Origin: Spirochaetaceae bacterium
Lineage (GTDB): Bacteria > Spirochaetota > Spirochaetia > DSM-2461
NCBI GenBank assembly: GCA_051531975.1
Contig: JAOPTT010000006.1
Coordinates: 656 to 64,655, forward strand
Direction of reading: 5' to 3'
Length of the DNA stretch: 64,000 nucleotides
Shown: piece after piece, positions 199 to 62,717 of the stretch
Layout: every line of letters begins with the position of its first letter
Numbering within the stretch: the first letter of the stretch is position 1
Program-made: the position numbers and the translations under genes
Notes under the pieces: generated by a model
Told to the model about the DNA's origin: nothing
What the model saw: the letters and a program-made list of their open reading frames with translations, nothing else
The model's database searches: none

Positions 199-2529
199 AT
201 GAGATATGTAAAAACATTTTTATATTTAATAATATTATTTTTAACCAGTTGTTATAGTGTTAAAACAAATAATAATTCCATTGTAATTAATGAAGTAGTC
301 AGTCGAAATAGTGGTTCAAGTTACGATATAAATGGTAAATCCTCAGACTGGATTGAGATTTACAATAGTGGTAAAAGAAAAATAAATCTTGAAGGTTACT
401 CTTTGTCAGTTTCTGAATCAGATAATCCAATTTATCTGTTTAATAAATCATTTATCAGAGGTGGAGAGACATTAATTATTTGGTGTTCAGCAAATGATAG
501 CGTAAACACTGACTTGGAGTTACATGCACCTTTTAAGATTAGTGGTTCAGGGGAAGTTATAACTTTAACAGACCCTGATGGTAAAGTTGTTGATAAAATT
601 GAAGTTCCTGAGTTAGATTCAGATGTAAGCTTCGGAAGACCCATTTCCAATATTGACCAGCTTGTAATTTTATCAAATAGTACTCCAGGAAAGTTAAATA
701 ACAGTGATGAAAGACTAAATGATACTCAAAGTACTATACCTTTATTTTCTACAAATGGTGGGTTCTATGCTACAGTATTTAATCTTGAATTAAGTTGTTT
801 AGAGAATGAAGTTATTTATTATACTACAGATGGTTCTATTCCTACTTTAGATTCTAATCTATATAAAAATTCGATTAAAATATCTGATGCATCTGCTTCG
901 CCAAACGAACTTTCAACAATAGAAGGTACTGCTGTTTGGTCTATAGCACCTAAAGAAAAATTATATAAAGGTTCTGTTATTAGAGCTATTACATATTCTA
1001 AGGGACACCCAATTAGCGATGTAGTTACAAATACTTATTTTATATCTGATAAATTAAATAAAAGGTATAGTATGCCAGTAGTTTCTATATCAACAAACTC
1101 TGAGAATCTTTTCGATTTTAATCGTGGTATTTATATGCTAGGTAAAATAAATAAAGATTGGGTCAAAAACAGTCCCAAAGAGAAAATACAAGGGGATAAT
1201 CCAGCTAACTTTAATCAAAGAGGTAAGGGTTGGGCTATTCCATTTCATATGGAGTATTACGATTTAGATGGTAAATCTTCTTTGTCAAATGGAGGACTAC
1301 TAAGGATATTAGGTGGATGGTCTAGAGCAAACCCAGTAAAATCCCTTAGACTCGACTTTAATGAACCAATTAAAAACATAATTTATCCAGATTTAGATAT
1401 CAAAGAACTTAATTCAATTGTATTAAGAACAGGAGCTAATGATTGGGATCATACAATATTTAGAGACACTTTAATGACATCAATTGTAGATGATTTAATG
1501 GAAACTCAAGAATCTAAACCTGCAATTGTATTTATTAATGGAGAATACTGGGGTATTCATAATATCAGAGAAAGAATGAATCAGAGTTATTTTAAAAACC
1601 ATTTTAATATCCCTATAAAGAATATTGTTGTTTTGGAAAACGAAGGTGAAGTTGCTGAGGGTGATTCCAAAGGTGCAGAATCGTATAAAAAGATTTTGGA
1701 TTTCATAGAAAATAATGATCTATCAATAACAACAAATTATGAATATATAAAATCTAAAATTGATATTGAAAACTTTGTTGATTATTTCGCAACTCAAATA
1801 TATTATGCCAATAGTGATTGGCCTGGTAATAATATTCGATTCTGGCACGATGAAAAAAATGATTCTAAGTGGCGATGGATGTTATATGATACTGACTTTG
1901 GTTTAGGTCTATATGACTGGACTGGAGGGGTTCATCACGATACATTTGATCTTGTTATGAATCCTAATGGACCAGATTGGCCAAATCCTCCATGGTCTAC
2001 TCTGTTATTCAGATCTTTAATATCAAATAGTGATTTTAAACTTTTGTTTTTAAATAGATTTTGTGACCTCTTAAATAGTCGTTTTAGTACAATCAATATG
2101 AAAAAAGAACTAAATGAAATTATTGAATTGTATGAACCTGAGATGACTGAACATTTAAATAGATGGGGTAATCCAAATGATAATCTAAATAGATGGAAGT
2201 CTAAAACTGAAATAATATCAGGATTTGTTTCACAAAGACCAAAATTGATAAGAGAAAAAATTTCAAGAAAATTTGGACTTAAAGGATCTGTTAAATTAGA
2301 AATAAATATTAAAAATGGTTCTGTGAATGTAAATACAATAAATAACTTGGAAAGTAATTGGTCTGGAGTTTATTTTAAAAACACAGCTATCACGATAAAA
2401 GCTATACCGAATGAAGGATATACTTTTACCGGTTGGGAAGGTCTTACTGGTAGTACAAATCCAGTTATACAGATTAAATTAGATAAAAACTCTATATTAA
2501 CACCACTTTTTGTAAAGGATGATAAATGA
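199..2529 (+). CDS. CotH kinase family lipoprotein (lamin-tail domain, chitobiase/FN3-like domain, CotH kinase, C-terminal repeat domain)
   Basis: Lipobox LTSC; LTD-like IVINEV..DWIEIYN; IYYTTDGSIP; CotH-type VFINGEYWGIHNIRE, NSDWPGNN, WRWMLYDTD; AIPNEGYTFTGW. Confidence 0.88.
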   Translation: MRYVKTFLYLIILFLTSCYSVKTNNNSIVINEVVSRNSGSSYDINGKSSDWIEIYNSGKRKINLEGYSLSVSESDNPIYLFNKSFIRGGETLIIWCSANDSVNTDLELHAPFKISGSGEVITLTDPDGKVVDKIEVPELDSDVSFGRPISNIDQLVILSNSTPGKLNNSDERLNDTQSTIPLFSTNGGFYATVFNLELSCLENEVIYYTTDGSIPTLDSNLYKNSIKISDASASPNELSTIEGTAVWSIAPKEKLYKGSVIRAITYSKGHPISDVVTNTYFISDKLNKRYSMPVVSISTNSENLFDFNRGIYMLGKINKDWVKNSPKEKIQGDNPANFNQRGKGWAIPFHMEYYDLDGKSSLSNGGLLRILGGWSRANPVKSLRLDFNEPIKNIIYPDLDIKELNSIVLRTGANDWDHTIFRDTLMTSIVDDLMETQESKPAIVFINGEYWGIHNIRERMNQSYFKNHFNIPIKNIVVLENEGEVAEGDSKGAESYKKILDFIENNDLSITTNYEYIKSKIDIENFVDYFATQIYYANSDWPGNNIRFWHDEKNDSKWRWMLYDTDFGLGLYDWTGGVHHDTFDLVMNPNGPDWPNPPWSTLLFRSLISNSDFKLLFLNRFCDLLNSRFSTINMKKELNEIIELYEPEMTEHLNRWGNPNDNLNRWKSKTEIISGFVSQRPKLIREKISRKFGLKGSVKLEINIKNGSVNVNTINNLESNWSGVYFKNTAITIKAIPNEGYTFTGWEGLTGSTNPVIQIKLDKNSILTPLFVKDDK

Positions 2530-3200
2530 ATTTTGAGCAAATATTACTAGAGATAGGTTATAATAATATAAGTATACAGACAGGATTTATTCGGTTGATA
2601 ACATCAGGTTTATTAGGTTTTATGATATCTCTAATATTTAAAAAATATAACACAAAAGAAGAATCACAAACTGCGATGATTCAATCTCTTATATTCCTAA
2701 ATATGACTATATGCTTGGCTATGATGGCAATCGGTAATAATCTAGCAAGTGCATTTGGATTAGTTGGAGCAGTATCTATTATACGTTTTAGAACATCTGT
2801 TAAAAGTGCACGTGATATGGCTTTTGTATTTTTTACAATTGTAATTGGTATGGCCTGTGGATTAGGATTTATTCTATTATCTATATTAAGTCTGTTAATT
2901 GTGGGATCTATAATGTTGCTTGTATTTAAAACATCATATGGACACTCTAAAAATATCTATATGTTATTCAAATTAAAAGTATCATATAACGATACAATTT
3001 CTCATAGAAAAAATATTGAAAATATTCTAAAAGACAGTGGTATTATTTTTAAAGTTTCTGGAGCAAAAATAGAGGAAACTAAATCATCAATAAGTTTTAA
3101 TATTAAGCTTATTAGTATAGATGACTTTGAAATATTAAGTTCAAAATTATATGAAGGATGTAAACTAAATAATTTAAAGTTACAATTGGTAGAGCTTTAG
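2526..3200 (+). CDS. DUF4956 family membrane protein
   Basis: Hydrophobic helices with IGNNLASAFGLVGAVSIIRFRT motif; ATGA overlap with the CotH gene. Confidence 0.85.
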   Translation: MNFEQILLEIGYNNISIQTGFIRLITSGLLGFMISLIFKKYNTKEESQTAMIQSLIFLNMTICLAMMAIGNNLASAFGLVGAVSIIRFRTSVKSARDMAFVFFTIVIGMACGLGFILLSILSLLIVGSIMLLVFKTSYGHSKNIYMLFKLKVSYNDTISHRKNIENILKDSGIIFKVSGAKIEETKSSISFNIKLISIDDFEILSSKLYEGCKLNNLKLQLVEL

Positions 3201-3992
3201 ATGAATCATAGTTTTAAAAGAAAAGAAGAAAAATATATATTAAACGAAAATATAGCACAGGATGTAATAGAATTTATAAATACTGTAATGCCTATCTCTA
3301 ATTATAACAATAATGGTTACATTGATATTAGAACAACATATCTAGAAAGTTCAGATCATTATATATATCATCTTAAAAAGCTCAAAAAAAAGAGTCGATT
3401 CAAAATTAGGATTAGAGAATATGGATTTGATGGTCTATTTAAAGATTATGTTTGGGTCGAACTAAAAGAAAAAGTTAATGGTGAAGGATATAAAAATAGA
3501 TTTAAAGTTAATAAATCTGATGTTTTAGATTTTATGAATGGTGGAAACTTAATAGACAACATTATTTTAAAAAATAGAAAAATTGATCCAGAATATCTTA
3601 TACATTTATATACAACTATTCAGAAGTTAATAGCAGAATTGAATTTAAAACCATTATTAGTTGTTCAATATAAAAGAATAGCTTTTGATACAGGATTAAA
3701 GGGTGGGGTTCGTTTTACTTTTGATAAGGATATTATTAGTGCTAAAGTTGATTTTGACTGCCTTTTTAAACCATTAGAAAATTTTAAAAGATACAAATCA
3801 AATAAAATGATAATGGAGCTTAAAACATGGGGCATATATCCTGAATTAATGGTTAAATTAAAAAAGAAATTTAACATTAAAAGAAAGAAATATTCTAAAT
3901 TTATTTTTGGGATGGAAGCTAATTGTTTTAACTTTACACATCCACCATTATCTTTAGAACAAGAGTATAATCAAATAATTTTTGAGGTATAG
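3201..3992 (+). CDS. VTC / polyphosphate polymerase domain protein (CYTH/TTM fold)
   Basis: RKEEKY, KIRIREY, VELKEK, YKRIAF, VRFTFDKDI, IMELK, YSKF motifs. Confidence 0.85.
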   Translation: MNHSFKRKEEKYILNENIAQDVIEFINTVMPISNYNNNGYIDIRTTYLESSDHYIYHLKKLKKKSRFKIRIREYGFDGLFKDYVWVELKEKVNGEGYKNRFKVNKSDVLDFMNGGNLIDNIILKNRKIDPEYLIHLYTTIQKLIAELNLKPLLVVQYKRIAFDTGLKGGVRFTFDKDIISAKVDFDCLFKPLENFKRYKSNKMIMELKTWGIYPELMVKLKKKFNIKRKKYSKFIFGMEANCFNFTHPPLSLEQEYNQIIFEV

Positions 3993-53712: not shown

Positions 53713-54872
53713 AAACAACAACTTTGTATAATAGACATAAAGAATTGAACGCTACATTTTCTGAGTTTGGTGGATATAATATGCCTTTATGGTATGGATC
53801 AGCAAAAGAGGAACATATCAGTGTTATTAAATCAGTAGGTCTTTTTGATACTAGCCACATGTCTGTATTTACAATTACTGGCCGAGATTCATTAAATTTA
53901 CTTAAAAGAGCATTTTCTAGGGATATTGATGAACTAAAAATTGGGAAGTCTGTTTATGGACTTTTTCAAAATAGTGAATTAGGTGTTATTGATGATACAC
54001 TTATATATCATTTGGAAAATTTAAGTTATATGGTTGTTGTAAATGCAGGGATGTCTGAAATAATTATATCCCATCTACTTTCATTCAAATTTAATGATAT
54101 AAAAATTGATAATTACACTGATAAGTTAGCAAAAATAGACATTCAAGGTCCTAAATCAATAAAAATAATGGAAAAACTCTTTGATTCAACACTGTTTGAT
54201 CTGTTCCCTTATTTTTCATTTAAAGGGAATTTTATTGATAGTGAAATAAAATTTAATAATCAACCTATTTTAATTTCAAGGTCCGGATATACAGGTGAGT
54301 TTGGTTTTGAACTATATGTCGATAGTAAGTGTGCTTCTGATCTATGGGATTCATTATTATTAAATGGTGAAGAATTTGACATTATACCCTGTGGGTTAGC
54401 TGCTAGGGATTCATTAAGGGTTGGTGCAGGTCTACCACTTTCTCACCAGGATATTGGAAATTGGAAGTTTTGTAACAATCCATGGAATTTTGCTGTAACA
54501 AATAGTGTTAAAAGCAGTGATAGTTATACATATGCCTACGTTGGATATGATGTAAGGAAACTACATGCAGAAAAAACTGGAAATGTAATATATCAATCAG
54601 ATAGTATAGGTGAGGTTTTAACATGTATATCAGAAGTATCTTTAACTAGAATTCAAGATACTGTTTTATCTGTAAACTCACCTGATCTTCCACATGACTA
54701 TAAAATAAAGGGTCTTGTTGCTGGATTTATTAAAGTTAATAGACCTCTAGATTATAACACAATAATATTTATTACAGATGGTAAAAGAGAACTTAAAGTA
54801 GAAGTTGTAGAGAGTATTAGACCTCATAGAACTGCTAGGAAATCGATAAAAAATATAAGGAGTTTTAAATGA
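53709..54872 (+). CDS. gcvT: Glycine cleavage system aminomethyltransferase T
   Basis: FGGYNMPLWY, LFDTSHM, SRSGYTGEFGFE, GLAARDSLR; GTG 53709 after AGGAG. Confidence 0.92.
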   Translation: MKTTTLYNRHKELNATFSEFGGYNMPLWYGSAKEEHISVIKSVGLFDTSHMSVFTITGRDSLNLLKRAFSRDIDELKIGKSVYGLFQNSELGVIDDTLIYHLENLSYMVVVNAGMSEIIISHLLSFKFNDIKIDNYTDKLAKIDIQGPKSIKIMEKLFDSTLFDLFPYFSFKGNFIDSEIKFNNQPILISRSGYTGEFGFELYVDSKCASDLWDSLLLNGEEFDIIPCGLAARDSLRVGAGLPLSHQDIGNWKFCNNPWNFAVTNSVKSSDSYTYAYVGYDVRKLHAEKTGNVIYQSDSIGEVLTCISEVSLTRIQDTVLSVNSPDLPHDYKIKGLVAGFIKVNRPLDYNTIIFITDGKRELKVEVVESIRPHRTARKSIKNIRSFK

Positions 54873-55213
54873 AATTTGCAAAAACACACGAATGGGTAAA
54901 AAAAGATGGAGATATCTTTTTAGTTGGTATATCTGATTTTGCACAAAAACAGTTAGGGGATATTGTATTTGTAGATTTTCCAGAAGTTGGTGATAATATA
55001 GATCAAGATGACTCATTAGGTGAATTAGAGTCATCTAAAGCTGTTTCTGAATTGAATATGCCATTTACAGGAGAAGTAATAGAGTTAAATGAAGAACTTG
55101 AAGACTCTCCAGAACTTATTAACTCCGACCCACATAAAACTTGGATTGTTAAAATTAGAGCTGAAAACCCAGAAGATTTTAATACATTATCTGATAAAGA
55201 AGAAACTCCGTGA
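54869..55213 (+). CDS. gcvH: Glycine cleavage system H protein
   Basis: HEWV, GISDFAQKQLGDIVFV, lipoyl Lys in ESSKAVSE. Confidence 0.95.
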   Translation: MKFAKTHEWVKKDGDIFLVGISDFAQKQLGDIVFVDFPEVGDNIDQDDSLGELESSKAVSELNMPFTGEVIELNEELEDSPELINSDPHKTWIVKIRAENPEDFNTLSDKEETP

Positions 55214-56499
55214 GGTACCTATCCCATACTGCTAATGATATCTCAAAAATGTTAGCAGTAATTGGTAAGGAATCAATATACGATCTGTTTGATCACATAC
55301 CTGATGATGTTAAAATTACTGAGGATTTAAAACTTCCTACAGAATTATCAGAGTGGGAATTAGAGGAACATCTAAATGATTTAGCACAAAAAAATATTAA
55401 TAAAAAATCATATTTAGGTGGAGGAAGTTATAATCACTATATACCAAATATTATCCAATATTTAACTTCAAGGTCAGAGTTTTTAACGTCTTATACACCT
55501 TATCAGCCAGAAATATCCCAAGGTACATTGCAATCTCTTTTTGAATTTCAGACATACGTCTCTAATTATCTTGGAATGGATTATAGTAATGCATCTATGT
55601 ATGACGGTGCGACTAGTTTTGCTGAGGCAGTATTGTTATCAACTAGGGTTACCAAAAGAAAAAAAATTGTTGTTTCGAAGGCTATTAATCCAAAATATAT
55701 TGATGTATTAAAAACATATGTTACTAGTTTAGGTATAGAGATAATTTATTTAGATTATAACAAGCATGGAGAAACAGATCTAACTAATATGCCAGATCTG
55801 TCTGATGTTGCATCAATATCAATACAATCTCCTAACTATTTTGGTGTAATAGAAAAACAAGAGCTTATTAAACCAATTATCAAAACTGAAAAAACACTTT
55901 TTATATCGTTATTTTCTGAAATTTTATCATACGGGCTGTTTAAACCTCCTGGAGAATTTGCAGCAGATATTGCGTGTGGAGAGGGTCAGAGTTTTGGTAT
56001 AAATCAAAGTTTTGGTGGCCCATCCCTTGGGATATTTGCATTTAATAAAAAGTACTTAAGAAATGTTCCAGGAAGACTTGTTGGACAGAGTATTGATATA
56101 AATGAACAACGTAGTTTTTCATTAACATTGGCTACTCGTGAACAGCATATCAGACGAGATAAAGCTACAAGTAATATATGTTCAAATCAAGGTCTTTGTA
56201 CATTATCCGCAATTATCTATATGTCTTTATTAGGTGGTAATGGACTTAATGAGTTGGCAAAAGTAAATTACCAGAATAGTAGTTATTTAAAGAGTGCTTT
56301 AATAGATGCTGGGTATGAAATAATTTTTAGTAGTGAAACATTTAATGAGTTTGTTGTTAAATCTAAAAAAATATTACCAGGTATAAGTCTGGAGAGTACT
56401 TATCCAGAATTAAAGGACTGTTATTTAATAACAGTAACAGAGGTTTTTAATAAAACTGAATTAGATATGTTTATATCAGACTTAGGAGGTAATGTATGA
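55210..56499 (+). CDS. gcvPA: Glycine dehydrogenase subunit 1
   Basis: TSYTPYQPEISQG, NASMYDG, TREQHIRRDKATSNICSNQ. Confidence 0.95.
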   Translation: MRYLSHTANDISKMLAVIGKESIYDLFDHIPDDVKITEDLKLPTELSEWELEEHLNDLAQKNINKKSYLGGGSYNHYIPNIIQYLTSRSEFLTSYTPYQPEISQGTLQSLFEFQTYVSNYLGMDYSNASMYDGATSFAEAVLLSTRVTKRKKIVVSKAINPKYIDVLKTYVTSLGIEIIYLDYNKHGETDLTNMPDLSDVASISIQSPNYFGVIEKQELIKPIIKTEKTLFISLFSEILSYGLFKPPGEFAADIACGEGQSFGINQSFGGPSLGIFAFNKKYLRNVPGRLVGQSIDINEQRSFSLTLATREQHIRRDKATSNICSNQGLCTLSAIIYMSLLGGNGLNELAKVNYQNSSYLKSALIDAGYEIIFSSETFNEFVVKSKKILPGISLESTYPELKDCYLITVTEVFNKTELDMFISDLGGNV

Positions 56500-57935
56500 T
56501 CTATGATGAACCTCTATTATGGGAAAAATCAGATGGATTAGGTTTAGGTTTTTCAATGCCAACACCGGTAGAGAATAGTACTTTACCAGATTCAAAATAT
56601 CTCAGAGGAAATATTAATTTACCAGGTTTTAGTGAACCTGAGGTTAGTAGACATTTTACAAGGTTATCTACCTGGAATTATGGGTTAGATACCGATATTT
56701 ACCCTTTAGGATCTTGTACAATGAAATATAATCCTAAAATACACGAGAAACTCGCTTCAATTAGTGGTTTTACAAAAAATCACCCATTACAATCAGATGA
56801 AACTTCCCAGGGTTCCTTAGAGATTTTATATAAAACTGGTGAATATTTAAAAGAAATTACAGGAATGGATGATGTTACTCTTCAACCTGCTGCTGGTGCA
56901 CATGGTGAATTAGTTGCTATGTTAATGTTTAAAAAATATCATGAATCCCGGGGTGAAAATAGAGATACTATATTAATACCTGATTCTGCCCATGGAACCA
57001 ATCCTGCATCCGCTTCTTTATGTGGTTTTAAAGTTAAGGTTATTCCTTCAAATAAGGATGGTATATTAACTCCTAATGCTGTTAAAAATCTTATGGATGA
57101 AACTGTGGCAGGTATTATGATTACAAATCCAAATACTTTAGGTATATTTGAAATTCATATAAAAGAGATAGCAGAAATCATTCATGCTGGCGGTGGTTTA
57201 GTTTATGCCGATGGCGCAAACTTAAACGCTATAATGGGCATTGTAAAAATGGGGGATACAGGGGTTGATGCGATGCATCTTAATCTACATAAAACATTTT
57301 CAACTCCCCATGGAGGAGGAGGTCCTGGAGCAGGTCCTGTTTGTGTAAAAAAACATCTTTCTGAGTATCTTCCTCTACCAAGAGTGATATATAAAAATAA
57401 TAAATATAGTCTAGAATATAATTATAAAAATTCTATAGGAAAGGTTCATGGATTTTATGGTAATTTTAGTGTCATTTTAAAAGCCTATTGTTACATTTTA
57501 TCTATGGGAGCGACTGGTCTTAAAAATACCAGTTTATATGCTGTTTTAAATGCTAATTATATTAGGGCGAGTATAAAAGATTTTTATCATTTACCATATG
57601 AATCAGCTTCAATGCACGAAGTTCTATTTACTGACTTAAAACAAGTTGATTCTGGTGTTAATACTTTGGATATTGCTAAAAGATTAATCGAGAATGGAAT
57701 ACATCCTCCTACTATATATTTTCCATTAGTAGTTAGTGGAGCAATGTTAATGGAACCAACAGAAACAGAATCTTTAACATCATTAGACAATTTTATAAAG
57801 ATATTAATTAATACAGCTTCTGAAGCAAAAACAGATCCAAAAAAATTGCATAATGCTCCAACAAATTGTAAAAGAAATAGAGTTAATGAAACATTAGCAG
57901 CAAGAAATCCAATTTTAAAGGGAGAAGTTCTATAA
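56496..57935 (+). CDS. gcvPB: Glycine dehydrogenase subunit 2
   Basis: YPLGSCTMKYNP, HGTNPAS, PLP Lys in HLNLHKTFSTPHGGGGPG. Confidence 0.95.
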   Translation: MIYDEPLLWEKSDGLGLGFSMPTPVENSTLPDSKYLRGNINLPGFSEPEVSRHFTRLSTWNYGLDTDIYPLGSCTMKYNPKIHEKLASISGFTKNHPLQSDETSQGSLEILYKTGEYLKEITGMDDVTLQPAAGAHGELVAMLMFKKYHESRGENRDTILIPDSAHGTNPASASLCGFKVKVIPSNKDGILTPNAVKNLMDETVAGIMITNPNTLGIFEIHIKEIAEIIHAGGGLVYADGANLNAIMGIVKMGDTGVDAMHLNLHKTFSTPHGGGGPGAGPVCVKKHLSEYLPLPRVIYKNNKYSLEYNYKNSIGKVHGFYGNFSVILKAYCYILSMGATGLKNTSLYAVLNANYIRASIKDFYHLPYESASMHEVLFTDLKQVDSGVNTLDIAKRLIENGIHPPTIYFPLVVSGAMLMEPTETESLTSLDNFIKILINTASEAKTDPKKLHNAPTNCKRNRVNETLAARNPILKGEVL

Positions 57936-58741: not shown

Positions 58742-58794
58742 GGTATAAAAATAAGTTGATTAAATATAATATCAACCTATAATAAAAGAAATTA

Positions 58795-60741
58795 ATGCTA
58801 AAAAGAACTCTACTTGCAATTTTATTAATAACAATCTCTCTTTGTCTCTTTTCAAATGTTGAAAAAGGAGTAATTGATCTTTCGAATTACGATTTTAATA
58901 CCGATGAACCTTTAGACCTTTCAGGAGAGTGGATATTAAAACAGGATAATAGAAATGATATATTTTCTAATGTACCTGGTGGCTGGATAGGTCACAAAGG
59001 TGAAGTAACTTACATAATAAATATAATTAGTAGTGGAGCTAAACGTCTAATTATTGCACCATCTCAAATAAATTCAAAATATAAACTTTTTCATAATGGA
59101 ATACAGATTGCTAGCGATGATCAAAATAGACCAAGATATATTCCAATTGAACTAATAAATGGAATTAACAAATTAGAATTTAATATTACAAATTATACCG
59201 ATGTATTTAGTGGGTTTAGAAATCACCCTTATATTGGGAACTTTAATACTATGATGAGAAAACATGAGAGGAATATTTTAAAAGATACCTTTTTTAGTGG
59301 TGCCTCATTTATTATGTTTATCTTTTTTGTAGTACTTTTTCTACATTATAAAAAAGATAGGTCTATGTTATATTTTGCCTTAATATGTATTAATTTTGCA
59401 GTTAGGAGTTTTGTTACAAATGATAAAGTTATATTTTATTATTTACCTAATTTGTCCTACGATATATGCAATAAACTTGAATACTTAACCATTTATATTC
59501 TTCCTTTATTACTTCTTCTGTTTCTTTATAATTATTTTAAAAAGGCTAAAAAAGATAAGTTATTTTTAATTTTTACAATTATCTCTATTGTATATCCATT
59601 GTCAGCGCTACTATTTACACCAGCACTATATATGAAGTTATCTATCTCTTTTTATATATATATATGTATTTTTTCAGTTTATATAATAATCAAATTAGTC
59701 TTTTATACTATCAATAGATATCGTGACTCTTTAAAGTTATCAGTAAGTCTGTTATGCCTATGTTTTGCAGGAATTTATGATATTAATATTATCTTTAACA
59801 GTTCTTCTGTAACTCTCATTTTACCTGGTTCAATGATTATTTTTATCATGTTTATGTCTTTTATAGTATCAAAAAGAGAGATTGATAATACAAAACAAAT
59901 TGAAAAATTATCATCTGAGACTCTTAAAGTAAATAAATACTTAAGTAAATTTGTTCCAAATCATTTTATTGAAACAGTTGGTATGGGTAATATATTAGAA
60001 ATAAAAAAAGGTGATGGTATGGAGAAGGATATGACAGTTCTTTTTGCTAGTATCAAAAATTTTAAAAAAGACTTAAAGCTATATAATCCAGAAGAGAGTG
60101 TAGAACTACTAAATAGATGCTTTTCAGTTATATCACCAATAATTTCAAGTAATAATGGGTTTATTGATAAATTTATTGATGAAACATTAATGGCTGTATT
60201 CCCCGGAAAACCTGAAGATGCTATCGATGCAATAATACAGATAAACATAGAGTTGAAAATGTATAATAGCTCTAATAGTGAGGATCGACCAATTGAGATA
60301 AGATCTGGAATACATATAGGTAAACAATTTATTGGAATAGTTGGGGATGATAAAAGAGTAGATGCAACAGTAATATCAAAAGTTGTTAATACCGCTAGTC
60401 GTATTAATTCATTTACAAATAAAATTGATAGAAATATTTTAATAAGTGATGATGTATATCAACGTTTATCAAATAAAAATGGATATGAAACTAAGTTTAT
60501 GGGAAAGGTTAAACTAAAAGGAAATAAAAATTTCATCGGAATTCATTGTATATATATTGATGATATGGATGAGGCTGATAATCTTTTTAGTATGACAATG
60601 ACCAGACTAGGTAATAGTAGTTTAGATAAAATAGAGAATGTTTTACTAAATATTAAAAGTATGTACAAAGATCATACGCCTTCTTTATATTACTTAGAAT
60701 TAATTCAAAGAAATAAAACATTGGAGGATATAGAAAAATGA
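58795..60741 (+). CDS. Membrane (7TM-DISM-like) class III nucleotide cyclase subunit lacking the metal-binding Asp residues
   Basis: Signal peptide, extracellular domain, multiple TM helices, KFVP, VLFASIKNF, IDKFIDE, GIHIG, TVISKVVNTASRI. Confidence 0.85.
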   Translation: MLKRTLLAILLITISLCLFSNVEKGVIDLSNYDFNTDEPLDLSGEWILKQDNRNDIFSNVPGGWIGHKGEVTYIINIISSGAKRLIIAPSQINSKYKLFHNGIQIASDDQNRPRYIPIELINGINKLEFNITNYTDVFSGFRNHPYIGNFNTMMRKHERNILKDTFFSGASFIMFIFFVVLFLHYKKDRSMLYFALICINFAVRSFVTNDKVIFYYLPNLSYDICNKLEYLTIYILPLLLLLFLYNYFKKAKKDKLFLIFTIISIVYPLSALLFTPALYMKLSISFYIYICIFSVYIIIKLVFYTINRYRDSLKLSVSLLCLCFAGIYDINIIFNSSSVTLILPGSMIIFIMFMSFIVSKREIDNTKQIEKLSSETLKVNKYLSKFVPNHFIETVGMGNILEIKKGDGMEKDMTVLFASIKNFKKDLKLYNPEESVELLNRCFSVISPIISSNNGFIDKFIDETLMAVFPGKPEDAIDAIIQINIELKMYNSSNSEDRPIEIRSGIHIGKQFIGIVGDDKRVDATVISKVVNTASRINSFTNKIDRNILISDDVYQRLSNKNGYETKFMGKVKLKGNKNFIGIHCIYIDDMDEADNLFSMTMTRLGNSSLDKIENVLLNIKSMYKDHTPSLYYLELIQRNKTLEDIEK

Positions 60742-62717
60742 TAAAAAAAATCCTCTATATTTTATTACTGTTGTTACTATATTCATGTAATGTTAATAAA
60801 AATATTGTTGAAGTTAATGGGAAATGGGAACTATATAACAACAAATTTATATTATCTGAACCATCTAATACAGTAGAATTACCTGATTCTAAACTCTATT
60901 TCTCTGGATCAAATAAAGAAATAGCAACAAATAAAAATTATGAGTTTGGATCTATAAAACAGAAATTAAATGTTATACCTAATAATAACTATTCACTTTA
61001 TTTTTCCGGAGTACATTCCGCTTCGAAGATATGGATAGATGGTGAACTCTTAGGTGAATTTGGTACTATTGGAAAAACTTTAAATAGTTCTGAACCTGAT
61101 ATTAGACGAGGGTTAATCAATTTTACTCCCCAAAAGAAATCGGTGGATTTAGTAATTGAATTTTCTCATTTCTATTTCAATACTAAATATCTATTTAAAT
61201 GGATTGTTTTAGGTAATACATCAGATATCGTAAGGTTATATATAAAAAGTCAAAGTAAAGATTATATAACCTTTGGTTTATTAATAATTTGCTCATTTTT
61301 GTTTTTATTAATTTATATTATAAACCGCAAAAACTCATACAATTTATTTTTATCTCTTTTTTCTATCTCTTATGGCTTAAGATCTTTTTTAATGAAAAAT
61401 ACAACTCTTTATTACATGATTCCATCACTTAAGTGGGAATATATTTATATGATAACAAAAGCCAGTGAACTATGGGCATTGTCTTTTATATTACTATTTT
61501 TTCGATCTTTGTTTCCTGAAGAACTAGATAATATTGTAACCAAAATTATAGTCTCAGCTACATTGGTTATGTCACTACTAACTTTTATCCCTCTTGAATA
61601 TTTTAATAAACATAATGTTCTGCTAGTTTTTCATATTTTAGTATTAATTTCAGGTGTTTATATTATATCTAGGTTATTAAAAACTGTACAAAAATATCGA
61701 AGTTATGCCGTTCCTGCAATGATTACAGTAATATTTTTCTTTTCAACTATAGTTTTCGACATTTTTGCGAGTAGAATAATGGTAATATTTGATTATTATA
61801 GTGCTCAATTTGTTTTTCTTCTAATTATAACAATGTTTCTAATGATAGGTAAAAACAGATCTGATACAAGTCGAAGTGTGGCTCACAAGCAAAAAATGAA
61901 TTTGTTAACAAGAGAAACTTTCTCAAAGTTTGTTCCAATTGAAATTCTAAGTAGAGTTAACAATAGTCAGTTAATAGATAGACCTCCTGGTGATTTTATT
62001 CTTGAAGCAATAACAATGGTTTACATCGATATCAGAGATTTTACTAAATTATCAGAAGGTTTATCTCCAACAGACAATTTTAAATTGATAAACGATTTTT
62101 ATTCTATTGTAGGAGAACATGTAAACAGTAATCATGGGTATATAGAATCTTATGGTGGGGATGGTGTTAAGGCTATTTTTTCAGATAATCCATTAGATGC
62201 TATTAATACAACACTAAATATTAGTAGAGATGTTGCAAAAAGTTCAGGTATAAAAATTGGTATGTCTATACATTTTGGTAAAGTTGTATTAGGTACAATT
62301 GGTGGGAAAAATAGAATCCAAGCAACAGCTATATCTGAAGTAACAAGAATTTTAGGAGTTATGGATAATTTTAATTCAAAAATGGGTATAGAAATACTTA
62401 TTACTGAAGTTATATATAAAAGTTCAAATATTCATTATCAAAAAACAATATATTTAGGTCCAGTTATATTAAAGGATGAAGAAGAACCGGTTAATCTATA
62501 TCAAGTTATTCCAGATGATTTTCATATTGATCCATTATTTAGAGAATCTTTCTCCGATGCAGTGGATATGATTCAAAAAAAGAGTTATTCAAAAGCTTTA
62601 AGTATCTTTTATTTAGCTCAGCGATATAATCCAACTCATTTACTTACAAAATACTATGTTAAGCAACTGGAAAATTTTGTTAAATTAGATCAGTTAACCT
62701 TTACTCTAAAGCTTTAG
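60738..62717 (+). CDS. Membrane (7TM-DISM-like) class III nucleotide cyclase subunit lacking the Lys/Asn/Arg residues
   Basis: Lipobox-like LYSC, multiple TM helices, KFVP, VYIDIRDFT, IESYGGDG, SIHFG, TAISEVTRILGV, TPR-like tail. Confidence 0.85.
   Translation: MIKKILYILLLLLLYSCNVNKNIVEVNGKWELYNNKFILSEPSNTVELPDSKLYFSGSNKEIATNKNYEFGSIKQKLNVIPNNNYSLYFSGVHSASKIWIDGELLGEFGTIGKTLNSSEPDIRRGLINFTPQKKSVDLVIEFSHFYFNTKYLFKWIVLGNTSDIVRLYIKSQSKDYITFGLLIICSFLFLLIYIINRKNSYNLFLSLFSISYGLRSFLMKNTTLYYMIPSLKWEYIYMITKASELWALSFILLFFRSLFPEELDNIVTKIIVSATLVMSLLTFIPLEYFNKHNVLLVFHILVLISGVYIISRLLKTVQKYRSYAVPAMITVIFFFSTIVFDIFASRIMVIFDYYSAQFVFLLIITMFLMIGKNRSDTSRSVAHKQKMNLLTRETFSKFVPIEILSRVNNSQLIDRPPGDFILEAITMVYIDIRDFTKLSEGLSPTDNFKLINDFYSIVGEHVNSNHGYIESYGGDGVKAIFSDNPLDAINTTLNISRDVAKSSGIKIGMSIHFGKVVLGTIGGKNRIQATAISEVTRILGVMDNFNSKMGIEILITEVIYKSSNIHYQKTIYLGPVILKDEEEPVNLYQVIPDDFHIDPLFRESFSDAVDMIQKKSYSKALSIFYLAQRYNPTHLLTKYYVKQLENFVKLDQLTFTLKL

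Follow-up and report, generated by a model that had tools for sequence, protein, structure and literature searches.

Can two bacterial genes share a single class III cyclase active site, each supplying the residues that the other has lost? The question is raised by two overlapping genes, here called A and B, which lie in a stretch of 64,000 nucleotides (the window) of contig JAOPTT010000006.1 from a marine spirochaete (Spirochaetaceae bacterium, assembly GCA_051531975.1; own genome, G000, 5.46 Mb in 29 contigs). A first-pass annotation of this DNA had proposed that the two products are receptor cyclases with complementary catalytic losses and that they work as an obligate heterodimer. We find that the complementary pair is real, conserved and rare. 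From the residue map and a modelled complex, we consider it probable that A and B form an obligate heterodimeric receptor adenylate cyclase with one active site, which would be active only as A:B.

One source describes the class III cyclases of bacteria as homodimers whose two sites are equivalent and the mammalian enzymes as pseudo-heterodimers of complementary domains (PMC4821796). The same text regards the C1/C2 heterodimer with its one site as having developed in eukaryotes and as having been modelled in the laboratory with complementary mutants of Rv1625c, D300A and R376A, each inactive alone and together forming an active dimer (PMC4821796). A second source describes class III cyclases as homodimers or heterodimers and adds that the heterodimeric enzymes, transmembrane adenylyl cyclase among them, require both halves for a complete site (PMC8815786).

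Complementary catalytic residues in A and B

The two proteins share the same overall plan, with a signal peptide, an ectodomain, a 7TMR-DISM membrane module and a C-terminal cyclase domain followed by a helical tail (Table 1). The membrane module matches 7TMR-DISM_7TM (PF07695) with 65.3 bits in A and 34.3 bits in B (cut-off 29). Both proteins pass the curated cut-off of 21.9 bits for the class III cyclase domain Guanylate_cyc (PF00211), A with 70.3 bits, and thus belong to the class III cyclase family by sequence; no NCBIfam model matches either of them. A and B are 25% identical across their membrane and cyclase parts (BLASTP E 7e-38).

We located the catalytic positions using phmmer against PDB sequences, a MAFFT alignment that took in every cyclase domain of the genome and a column read-out based on hidden Markov models, and checked the codons. 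The positions are written below as a six-letter signature, D1-K-D2-T-N-R, for the two metal-binding aspartates, the substrate lysine, the adenine-side threonine and the transition-state asparagine and arginine. A reads SKETNR (S419/K459/E463/T525/N532/R536) and B reads DSDTRV (D431/S471/D475/T530/R537/V541).

A aligned to OaPAC (5x4t, E 4.7e-16). In this alignment FASI of A lies over FSDI, which places Ser419 at the first metal-Asp position; DKFIDE lies over TKFIGD, so that Lys459 is kept and Gly-Asp is replaced by Asp462-Glu463; and DATVISKVVNTASR lies over DYTILGDAVNVAAR, with Thr525, Asn532 and Arg536 all kept. Among mammalian proteins, A matched only AC5 (8sl3, residues 1071-1247) and AC8 in the phmmer search, in both cases within the C-terminal catalytic region. 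B aligned to Cya2 (2w01, E 5.2e-8) and to Pseudomonas aeruginosa CyaB (3r5g, E 3e-5). Its IDIR stretch lies over SDLR (2w01) or SDIR (3r5g), preserving Asp431, and IESYGGD over IDKFVGD of 3r5g puts Ser471 at the lysine position and preserves Asp475. In the QATAISEVTRILGV stretch of B, Thr530 is kept, Arg537 occupies the asparagine position and Val541 the arginine position. The C-terminal Lys loop on the phosphate side is Lys-rich in A (KLKGNKN) and acidic in B (LKDEEE).

The motifs quoted in the first-pass annotation are all present in the sequence. Its account of the residues kept by A holds against 5x4t and the 27 paralogues of the genome, as does its account of B, with both aspartates kept and Lys, Asn and Arg lost, against 2w01, 3r5g and the same paralogues. 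Its statement that A has lost both metal aspartates stands for the first, now Ser419, but needs amending for the second, where Asp has only become Glu463 and a new carboxylate, Asp462, has appeared beside it.

In a competent homodimer-type enzyme each monomer has two metal Asp, a substrate Lys (or Glu), an adenine- or guanine-side residue and the transition-state Asn and Arg, and neither A nor B has this full set. The split is instead of the C1/C2 type, with D431 and D475 in B and K459, T525, N532 and R536 in A. Class IIIb adenylate cyclases are ATP-specific and bear the substrate Lys together with a Thr, not an Asp, on the base-binding subunit. K459 and T525 of A align to the corresponding Lys and Thr of OaPAC, and both OaPAC and CyaB carry these residues in the alignments.

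PF00211 matches 29 domains in the genome, and D, D, N and R are intact in 27 of these; only A and B are degenerate. This set of 29 class III cyclase domains (e.g. C3:273549-274079 and C10:178043-178558) is an unusually large cyclic AMP (cAMP) signalling repertoire. A solitary paralogue at C14:160211-160804 reads DSDTNR, with Lys alone missing, and the stretch inspected around it holds no partner gene.

Conservation of the pair in related spirochaetes

The first-pass annotation had suggested searching other genomes for the same adjacent pair, and the search yielded four further orthologous pairs. A genome search with B found full-length orthologues in the same genus, in G001 (53% identity), in G003 (51%) and in a second copy in G001 (39%). 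Searching 38 genomes of the family with a B-type alignment (E ≤ 1e-60) gave five loci in four genomes of two genera: G000, G001 (twice), G003 and G014, the last from a different genus. Open reading frame (ORF) calling placed an A-type gene directly upstream of each of the other four B-type genes. The signatures of the upstream and downstream genes are SKETNR and DSDTRV in the window, SKETNR and DSDTRY at the first G001 locus, TKETNR and DSDTRA in G003, TKETNR and DSDTRK at the second G001 locus, and NKDTNR and DRDTTQ in G014. In every pair, therefore, the first metal Asp is missing from the upstream gene, and Lys, Asn and Arg are all missing from its downstream partner. Because A and B are the only degenerate members among the 29 domains of their genome and the arrangement recurs in four further pairs, we regard the pattern as more than chance.

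The kept and the lost positions behave differently. K459, T525, N532 and R536 are invariant in all five A-type proteins and D431, D475 and T530 in all five B-type proteins, across roughly 50-75% sequence divergence. At the lost positions, taken in the order of loci given above, the first metal position of A reads S, S, T, T and N, and the second is DE in four proteins and GD in the G014 orthologue. In B, the lysine position reads S, S, S, S and R, the asparagine position R, R, R, R and T, and the arginine position V, Y, A, K and Q. This variation indicates drift at the lost positions.

Reading frames are intact in all five pairs. In A and B alike, conservation within the genus is highest in the cyclase domain (55-69% identity for A and 53-64% for B, compared with 39-46% and 34-49% for the ectodomains), which argues against decay of the cyclase domains. 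Such a pattern would be expected if each subunit were selected for its own half of a shared site. Coupling of the two genes is conserved as well: all five junctions consist of a 4-nucleotide overlap (ATGA in three, GTGA in two) with GGAGG or GAGGA 8-12 nucleotides upstream.

Model of the catalytic dimer

We modelled residues 370-648 of A together with residues 380-659 of B in three runs, using five-row alignments and with ATP and two Mg riding along. The A+B model reached an ipSAE of 0.86, against 0.00 for the best of three controls, a mark that 116 of 157 solved complexes and 2 of 215 mismatched pairs also attain. At least 86% of contacts are shared between the runs, and the partner has a pLDDT of 90 or more. 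The modelled interface involves catalytic stretches on both sides (residues 459-462, 531-533, 536 and 575-578 of A; residues 434-437, 471-474 and 536-537 of B). The model indicates that the two chains are able to dimerise in the usual manner of cyclases, and its support goes no further.

Distribution and origin

Outside the five pairs, the best matches among the 38 family genomes carry the canonical DKDTNR signature, except for three cases. G045, from another genus, has an adjacent pair in which a DKDAGG gene (L240:2-1387) lies 78 nucleotides upstream of a canonical DKDTNR gene (1465-3519). The DKDAGG protein is a 7TMR-DISM cyclase that has kept D-K-D and lost Thr, Asn and Arg, and it is the sister of its canonical neighbour in the tree described below. 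The other two are solitary variants, DKDGKT in G041 (L222:1483-3531) and DKDSNS in G006 (L235:1201-3282), with no partner gene in the stretch inspected.

Wider searches returned few relatives. When the cyclase region of B was compared with 1.84 billion representative proteins, 20,216 matches had E ≤ 0.001 and ten had E ≤ 1e-30. Among the best 150 matches, eight were B-like: P0001 to P0005 (DSDTR followed by a variable residue), P0009 (DSDTQY), P0031 (DRDTTE) and P0105 (DRDTTQ). P0001 is the window's own B, P0004 is identical to the second G001 copy and P0105 to the downstream protein of G014. The same 150 matches contained 115 DKDTNR domains, and two proteins resembled A at the first metal position, with NKDTNR in P0119 and in one domain of P0007. 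A scan of genome contigs showed the pair, among the 80 loci kept, only in L047 and L048; their ORFs and signatures are identical to those of L043 and L045, and they were left out of the locus count as duplicates. Searches of genome contigs with B alone and with P0009 alone confirmed no relatives, and a metagenome scan with the B-type alignment gave no B-type or A-type signature among its 80 loci. A class-wide search of 401 genomes with P0009 added no new B-type gene among the ten loci classified; outside G000, G001 and G003 these were canonical or were the G045 pair.

Several single-chain proteins with two or three cyclase domains also appeared among the matches: P0006 (DKDTHQ/DKNTSR/DKDTNR), P0007 (NKDTNR and DKDTNR), P0008 (DKDTNN and DKDTNR) and P0010 (NKTTNR and DKDTNR). 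With one canonical domain each and the others partly degenerate, they look like fused pseudo-heterodimers.

In a quick IQ-TREE analysis of the membrane and cyclase region (58 rows, SH-aLRT support only), four A proteins group with P0119 (support 100). Eight B proteins form one clade (100); P0009 attaches to it first (100), followed by P0031 and the downstream gene of G014 (93). The upstream gene of G014 groups with the A lineage at a support of 79, and the A lineage, the B lineage and this gene make up one clade (85) that lies within the canonical 7TMR-DISM cyclases of this family. The most economical reading, given that the deep supports are modest, would be that a canonical receptor cyclase was duplicated once and that the two copies then lost complementary residues step by step. 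The A lineage would have changed its first metal Asp to Asn, and then to Ser or Thr with Gly-Asp becoming Asp-Glu; the B lineage would have lost Lys, Asn and Arg. Since the tree suggests that the pair arose within the spirochaete 7TMR-DISM cyclase family, it would be of independent origin and not an ancestor of the mammalian membrane cyclases.

Sensor domains

Pfam gave no match to either ectodomain at E values up to 10, and a Pfam scan of the ectodomains together with the C-terminal tails returned nothing meaningful, with two chance-level matches at E ~0.08. The ectodomains of A and B show no similarity to each other by BLASTP; five-sequence profiles of the two match with an hhalign probability of 97.5% (E 7.3e-12, 16% identity). 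An AlphaFold2 model of the A ectodomain has a mean pLDDT of 82.4, and among known structures it comes closest to the sugar-binding jelly-roll at the N-terminus of GH2 beta-glucuronidases (8ugt; Foldseek E 1.7e-6, TMq 0.60). The corresponding model for B was too poor for use (pLDDT 56.9) and was rejected. A protein-atlas look-up placed both ectodomains in unnamed clusters at 0.93-0.95, with sugar-binding families below 0.9, and these assignments serve as leads only. Taken together, the profiles and the model point to one sugar-binding-type fold that has strongly diverged between the two proteins, which would fit either two ligands or a single asymmetric site. The AND gate for two different ligands put forward in the first-pass annotation is speculative.

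B also carries a cysteine, Cys17 (window 60786-60788), at the end of its signal peptide in a lipobox-like context (L-x-x-S-C). It is invariant in all five B-type proteins and suggests a lipid-modified N-terminus on a seven-transmembrane receptor.

Proposed mechanism and alternative explanations

We propose that a single transcript yields A and B in step, since the start of B overlaps the stop of A and the ribosome-binding site of B lies inside the last codons of A. Their cyclase domains would adopt the head-to-tail pairing common to all class III enzymes. To the complete pocket, B would contribute the metal-binding D431 and D475 and the phosphate-binding beta1-alpha1 loop (C1-like), and A would contribute Lys459, Thr525, the transition-state Asn532 and Arg536 and the Lys-rich loop at 575-578 (C2-like). 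Since class IIIb enzymes, which use ATP, have this Lys/Thr pair, cAMP would be the expected product. The mirror pocket, made of Ser419, Asp462 and Glu463 of A and Ser471, Thr530, Arg537 and Val541 of B, would be dead; an Asp/Glu-Arg contact may occupy it, or it may have a regulatory function. Both subunits carry a diverged ectodomain of apparent sugar-binding type and a 7TMR-DISM module of their own, so the output would depend on an asymmetric receptor pair. The analysis shows the gene structure, the residue pattern, its conservation and a predicted interface; from these we infer that the heterodimer forms in vivo, that it makes cAMP, that each homodimer is inactive and what the second pocket may do.

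Asp462-Glu463 of A and Arg537 of B both line the mirror pocket, and they are jointly present in the four pairs of one genus and jointly absent from the G014 pair, a correlation that spans two lineages only. We suggest that they may form a salt bridge or an allosteric pocket. A more ambitious version of the proposal would see here an independent bacterial re-invention of the C1/C2 arrangement, in which the dead pocket has a function of its own, as an Asp462-Glu463/Arg537 lock or an allosteric site, and the ectodomains form an asymmetric, two-input, coincidence-detecting sugar receptor; we hold this version to be doubtful.

Several observations weigh against an obligate A:B enzyme. Either protein could also find a partner among the 27 other cyclase domains of the genome, of which at least four share the 7TMR-DISM architecture. 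Dimers of class III cyclases have been solved many times, and the high score of the A+B model may reflect structures that the predictor had already learned. That model cannot tell AB from AA, from BB or from A or B with another paralogue, and our own five-row alignments and riding ligands differ from the conditions under which the score was calibrated. The match of B to PF00211 (22.1 bits, residues 423-523) is only just above the cut-off. The pair occurs in only four of the 38 family genomes and was not found in G002, the fourth genome of the genus, which is 81% complete. Finally, A retains two neighbouring carboxylates, D462 and E463, which four of the five A-type proteins (A included) possess, and these might bind metal in a non-canonical manner. 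The first-pass annotation had itself named compensating residues at the catalytic positions as a sign against its proposal, and Asp462-Glu463 is of that kind. The residue map, the contrast between conserved and drifting positions, the coupling at five loci, the strong constraint on both cyclase domains and the AB model nevertheless agree with its picture of an obligate C1/C2-like heterodimer that has one competent ATP-type site and one degenerate pocket.

Could A and B instead be non-catalytic modulators that pair with canonical cyclases, giving dimers with one live and one dead site that tune or gate other 7TMR-DISM enzymes? Partners would be at hand among the 27 catalytically complete cyclase domains of the genome, several of which are 7TMR-DISM proteins with 23-25% identity to B, and the degenerate DKDAGG gene beside a canonical one in G045 hints that mixed dimers with canonical partners may exist in the family. 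We nonetheless judge this explanation improbable: it leaves unexplained the exact complementarity of the losses, the coupling at all five loci and the fact that each protein keeps precisely the residues that the other has lost.

We attach still less weight to the possibility that A is an active homodimer whose metal site has moved to Asp462/Glu463, with B as its catalytically dead regulatory or inhibitory partner. A does keep K, T, N and R and scores well against the cyclase profile, and the Asp-Glu of four of the five orthologues would put two carboxylates near the metal site. However, the more basal A-type proteins (the G014 upstream gene and P0119) have Asn at the first position and a plain Gly-Asp at the second, leaving a single carboxylate, and the two aspartates of B are invariant, which would be needless in a dead subunit. 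In Rv1625c, moreover, the single metal-Asp mutant D300A is inactive alone (PMC4821796).

That the two cyclase domains are pseudo-enzymes, in decay or put to another use, for instance as nucleotide-binding or scaffold domains that give no cyclase output, with a complementarity that is coincidental, is the least probable explanation and very unlikely in our view, since the weak profile match of B and the rarity of the pair (eight B-like proteins among the best 150 matches from 1.84 billion representatives) are set against intact frames in every pair, invariant kept residues and cyclase domains that are the most conserved part of both proteins.

Comparison with known cyclases

The closest parallel to the proposed A:B enzyme is found in the mammalian membrane adenylyl cyclases, where C1 (here B) holds both metal aspartates, C2 (here A) holds Lys, the adenine-side residue and the transition-state Asn and Arg, and one live site is accompanied by one degenerate pocket (PMC4821796, PMC8815786). 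The pair is nevertheless not a member of that family: the mammalian enzyme is a single TM1-C1-TM2-C2 chain with two six-transmembrane bundles, whereas A and B are two overlapping genes with 7TMR-DISM modules and ectodomains, and the adenine-side residue is Asp in the mammalian enzyme and Thr in the pair.

The engineered Rv1625c pair D300A and R376A resembles A and B in that one member lacks a metal Asp, the other lacks the transition-state Arg, and the two are active only jointly (PMC4821796). That pair is artificial and its wild type is a homodimer, whereas A and B are natural, have long diverged (to the 25% identity given above) and carry several substitutions each. Soluble guanylyl cyclase alpha/beta, receptor guanylyl cyclases of Caenorhabditis elegans and chytrid RGC/NeoR are likewise obligate class III heterodimers of two gene products with pseudo-symmetric sites (PMC8815786, PMC3591389), and the chytrid RGC/NeoR genes are clustered in the genome, as are A and B. 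These eukaryotic heterodimers make cyclic GMP and sense through different domains (haem, rhodopsin), whereas the bacterial A and B are predicted to make cAMP; RGC1 and RGC2 also retain all catalytic residues, whereas A and B are each deficient (PMC8815786). The canonical bacterial 7TMR-DISM class III cyclases have the same architecture as A and B and are their nearest relatives. Most of the best matches outside the pair have the full D-K-D-T-N-R set, whereas A and B have half a set each, fixed as an overlapping pair.

GcyB/GcyC of Rhodospirillum centenum was considered as a precedent for a bacterial heterodimer and rejected, as the source describes putative or non-catalytic guanylyl cyclase subunits and no complementary domain pair (PMC4681086). 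The literature searched, which left out most subscription journals and the main class III reviews, contained no report of a natural two-gene bacterial class III heterodimer. Our alignments and model suggest that this locus realises the C1/C2 principle naturally in bacteria, with two genes of the 7TMR-DISM receptor family. If this is true, the pair would represent a living intermediate between a homodimer and a fused pseudo-heterodimer, after duplication and complementary loss and before fusion. It would also provide a simple two-protein system for the control of a single active site by asymmetric receptor halves and a bacterial example of a degenerate second pocket. In animal adenylyl cyclases, the degenerate second pocket is the forskolin or allosteric site. 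For annotation, A and B would each be named "adenylate cyclase", though neither is expected to work alone.

Gene coupling and neighbouring genes

The ATGA overlap and both ORFs described in the first-pass annotation were confirmed from the ORF listing and the sequence (Table 1). The last codons of A deserve separate mention: in TTGGAGGAT (window 60720-60737), the invariant C-terminal Leu-Glu-Asp of A is at the same time the Shine-Dalgarno sequence of B. Because these codons do double duty, conservation of the A C-terminus may partly reflect constraint at the nucleotide level.

Table 1. Genes, coupling signals and catalytic codons of the A/B locus, in window coordinates
Feature	Position	Strand	Description and basis
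Gene A	58795-60741	+	648 aa (ORF listing); signal peptide, ectodomain ~22-160, 7TMR-DISM_7TM 164-360, cyclase 411-580, short helical tail
Gene B	60738-62717	+	659 aa (ORF listing); signal peptide with Cys17, ectodomain ~18-172, 7TMR-DISM_7TM 176-369, cyclase ~423-595, helical tail
Coupling element	GGAGG 60723-60727; ATGA 60738-60741	+	GGAGG within the last codons of A, 10 nt 5' of the B start; B ATG 60738-60740, A TGA 60739-60741
Promoter-like TTGATT-16-TATAAT	58756..58783	+	12 nt 5' of A; 10/12 matches; a weak lead
A Ser419	60049..60051	+	first metal-Asp position, lost; alignment to 5x4t, column D1
A Lys459, Asp462-Glu463	60169..60183	+	Lys kept, Asp-Glu for Gly-Asp; alignment to 5x4t
A Thr525, Asn532, Arg536	60367..60402	+	adenine-side Thr and transition-state Asn/Arg, kept; alignment, codons
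B Asp431	62028..62030	+	first metal Asp, kept; alignment to 2w01 and 3r5g
B Ser471, Asp475	62148..62162	+	substrate-Lys position, lost; second metal Asp, kept; alignment to 3r5g
B Thr530, Arg537, Val541	62325..62360	+	Thr kept; Asn position (Arg537) and Arg position (Val541), lost; alignments, codons

A scan for promoters and terminators gave 37 promoter-like sites in the region against 37.9 expected from shuffled sequences, so the promoter-like site upstream of A is a lead rather than a finding. The G+C content of the region is ~24-30%, as in the rest of this end of the window. A gene for a PHP-family phosphoesterase ends 53 nucleotides before A; a YebC/TACO1 gene begins 63 nucleotides after B and is followed by a RuvC-like ORF. 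The order PHP, A, B, YebC, RuvC, RuvA-like and RuvB-like is common to the window, the first G001 locus and G003. Farther upstream, the ORFs at 54869-57935 resemble by eye the glycine cleavage genes gcvH and a split gcvPA/gcvPB. Where the window has only the 53-nucleotide spacer between PHP and A, G001 and G003 have an extra gene of ~190 residues (L042:7507-8082 and L043:7299-7871), whose product has an RHG motif in its first part, which by eye resembles a histidine phosphatase.

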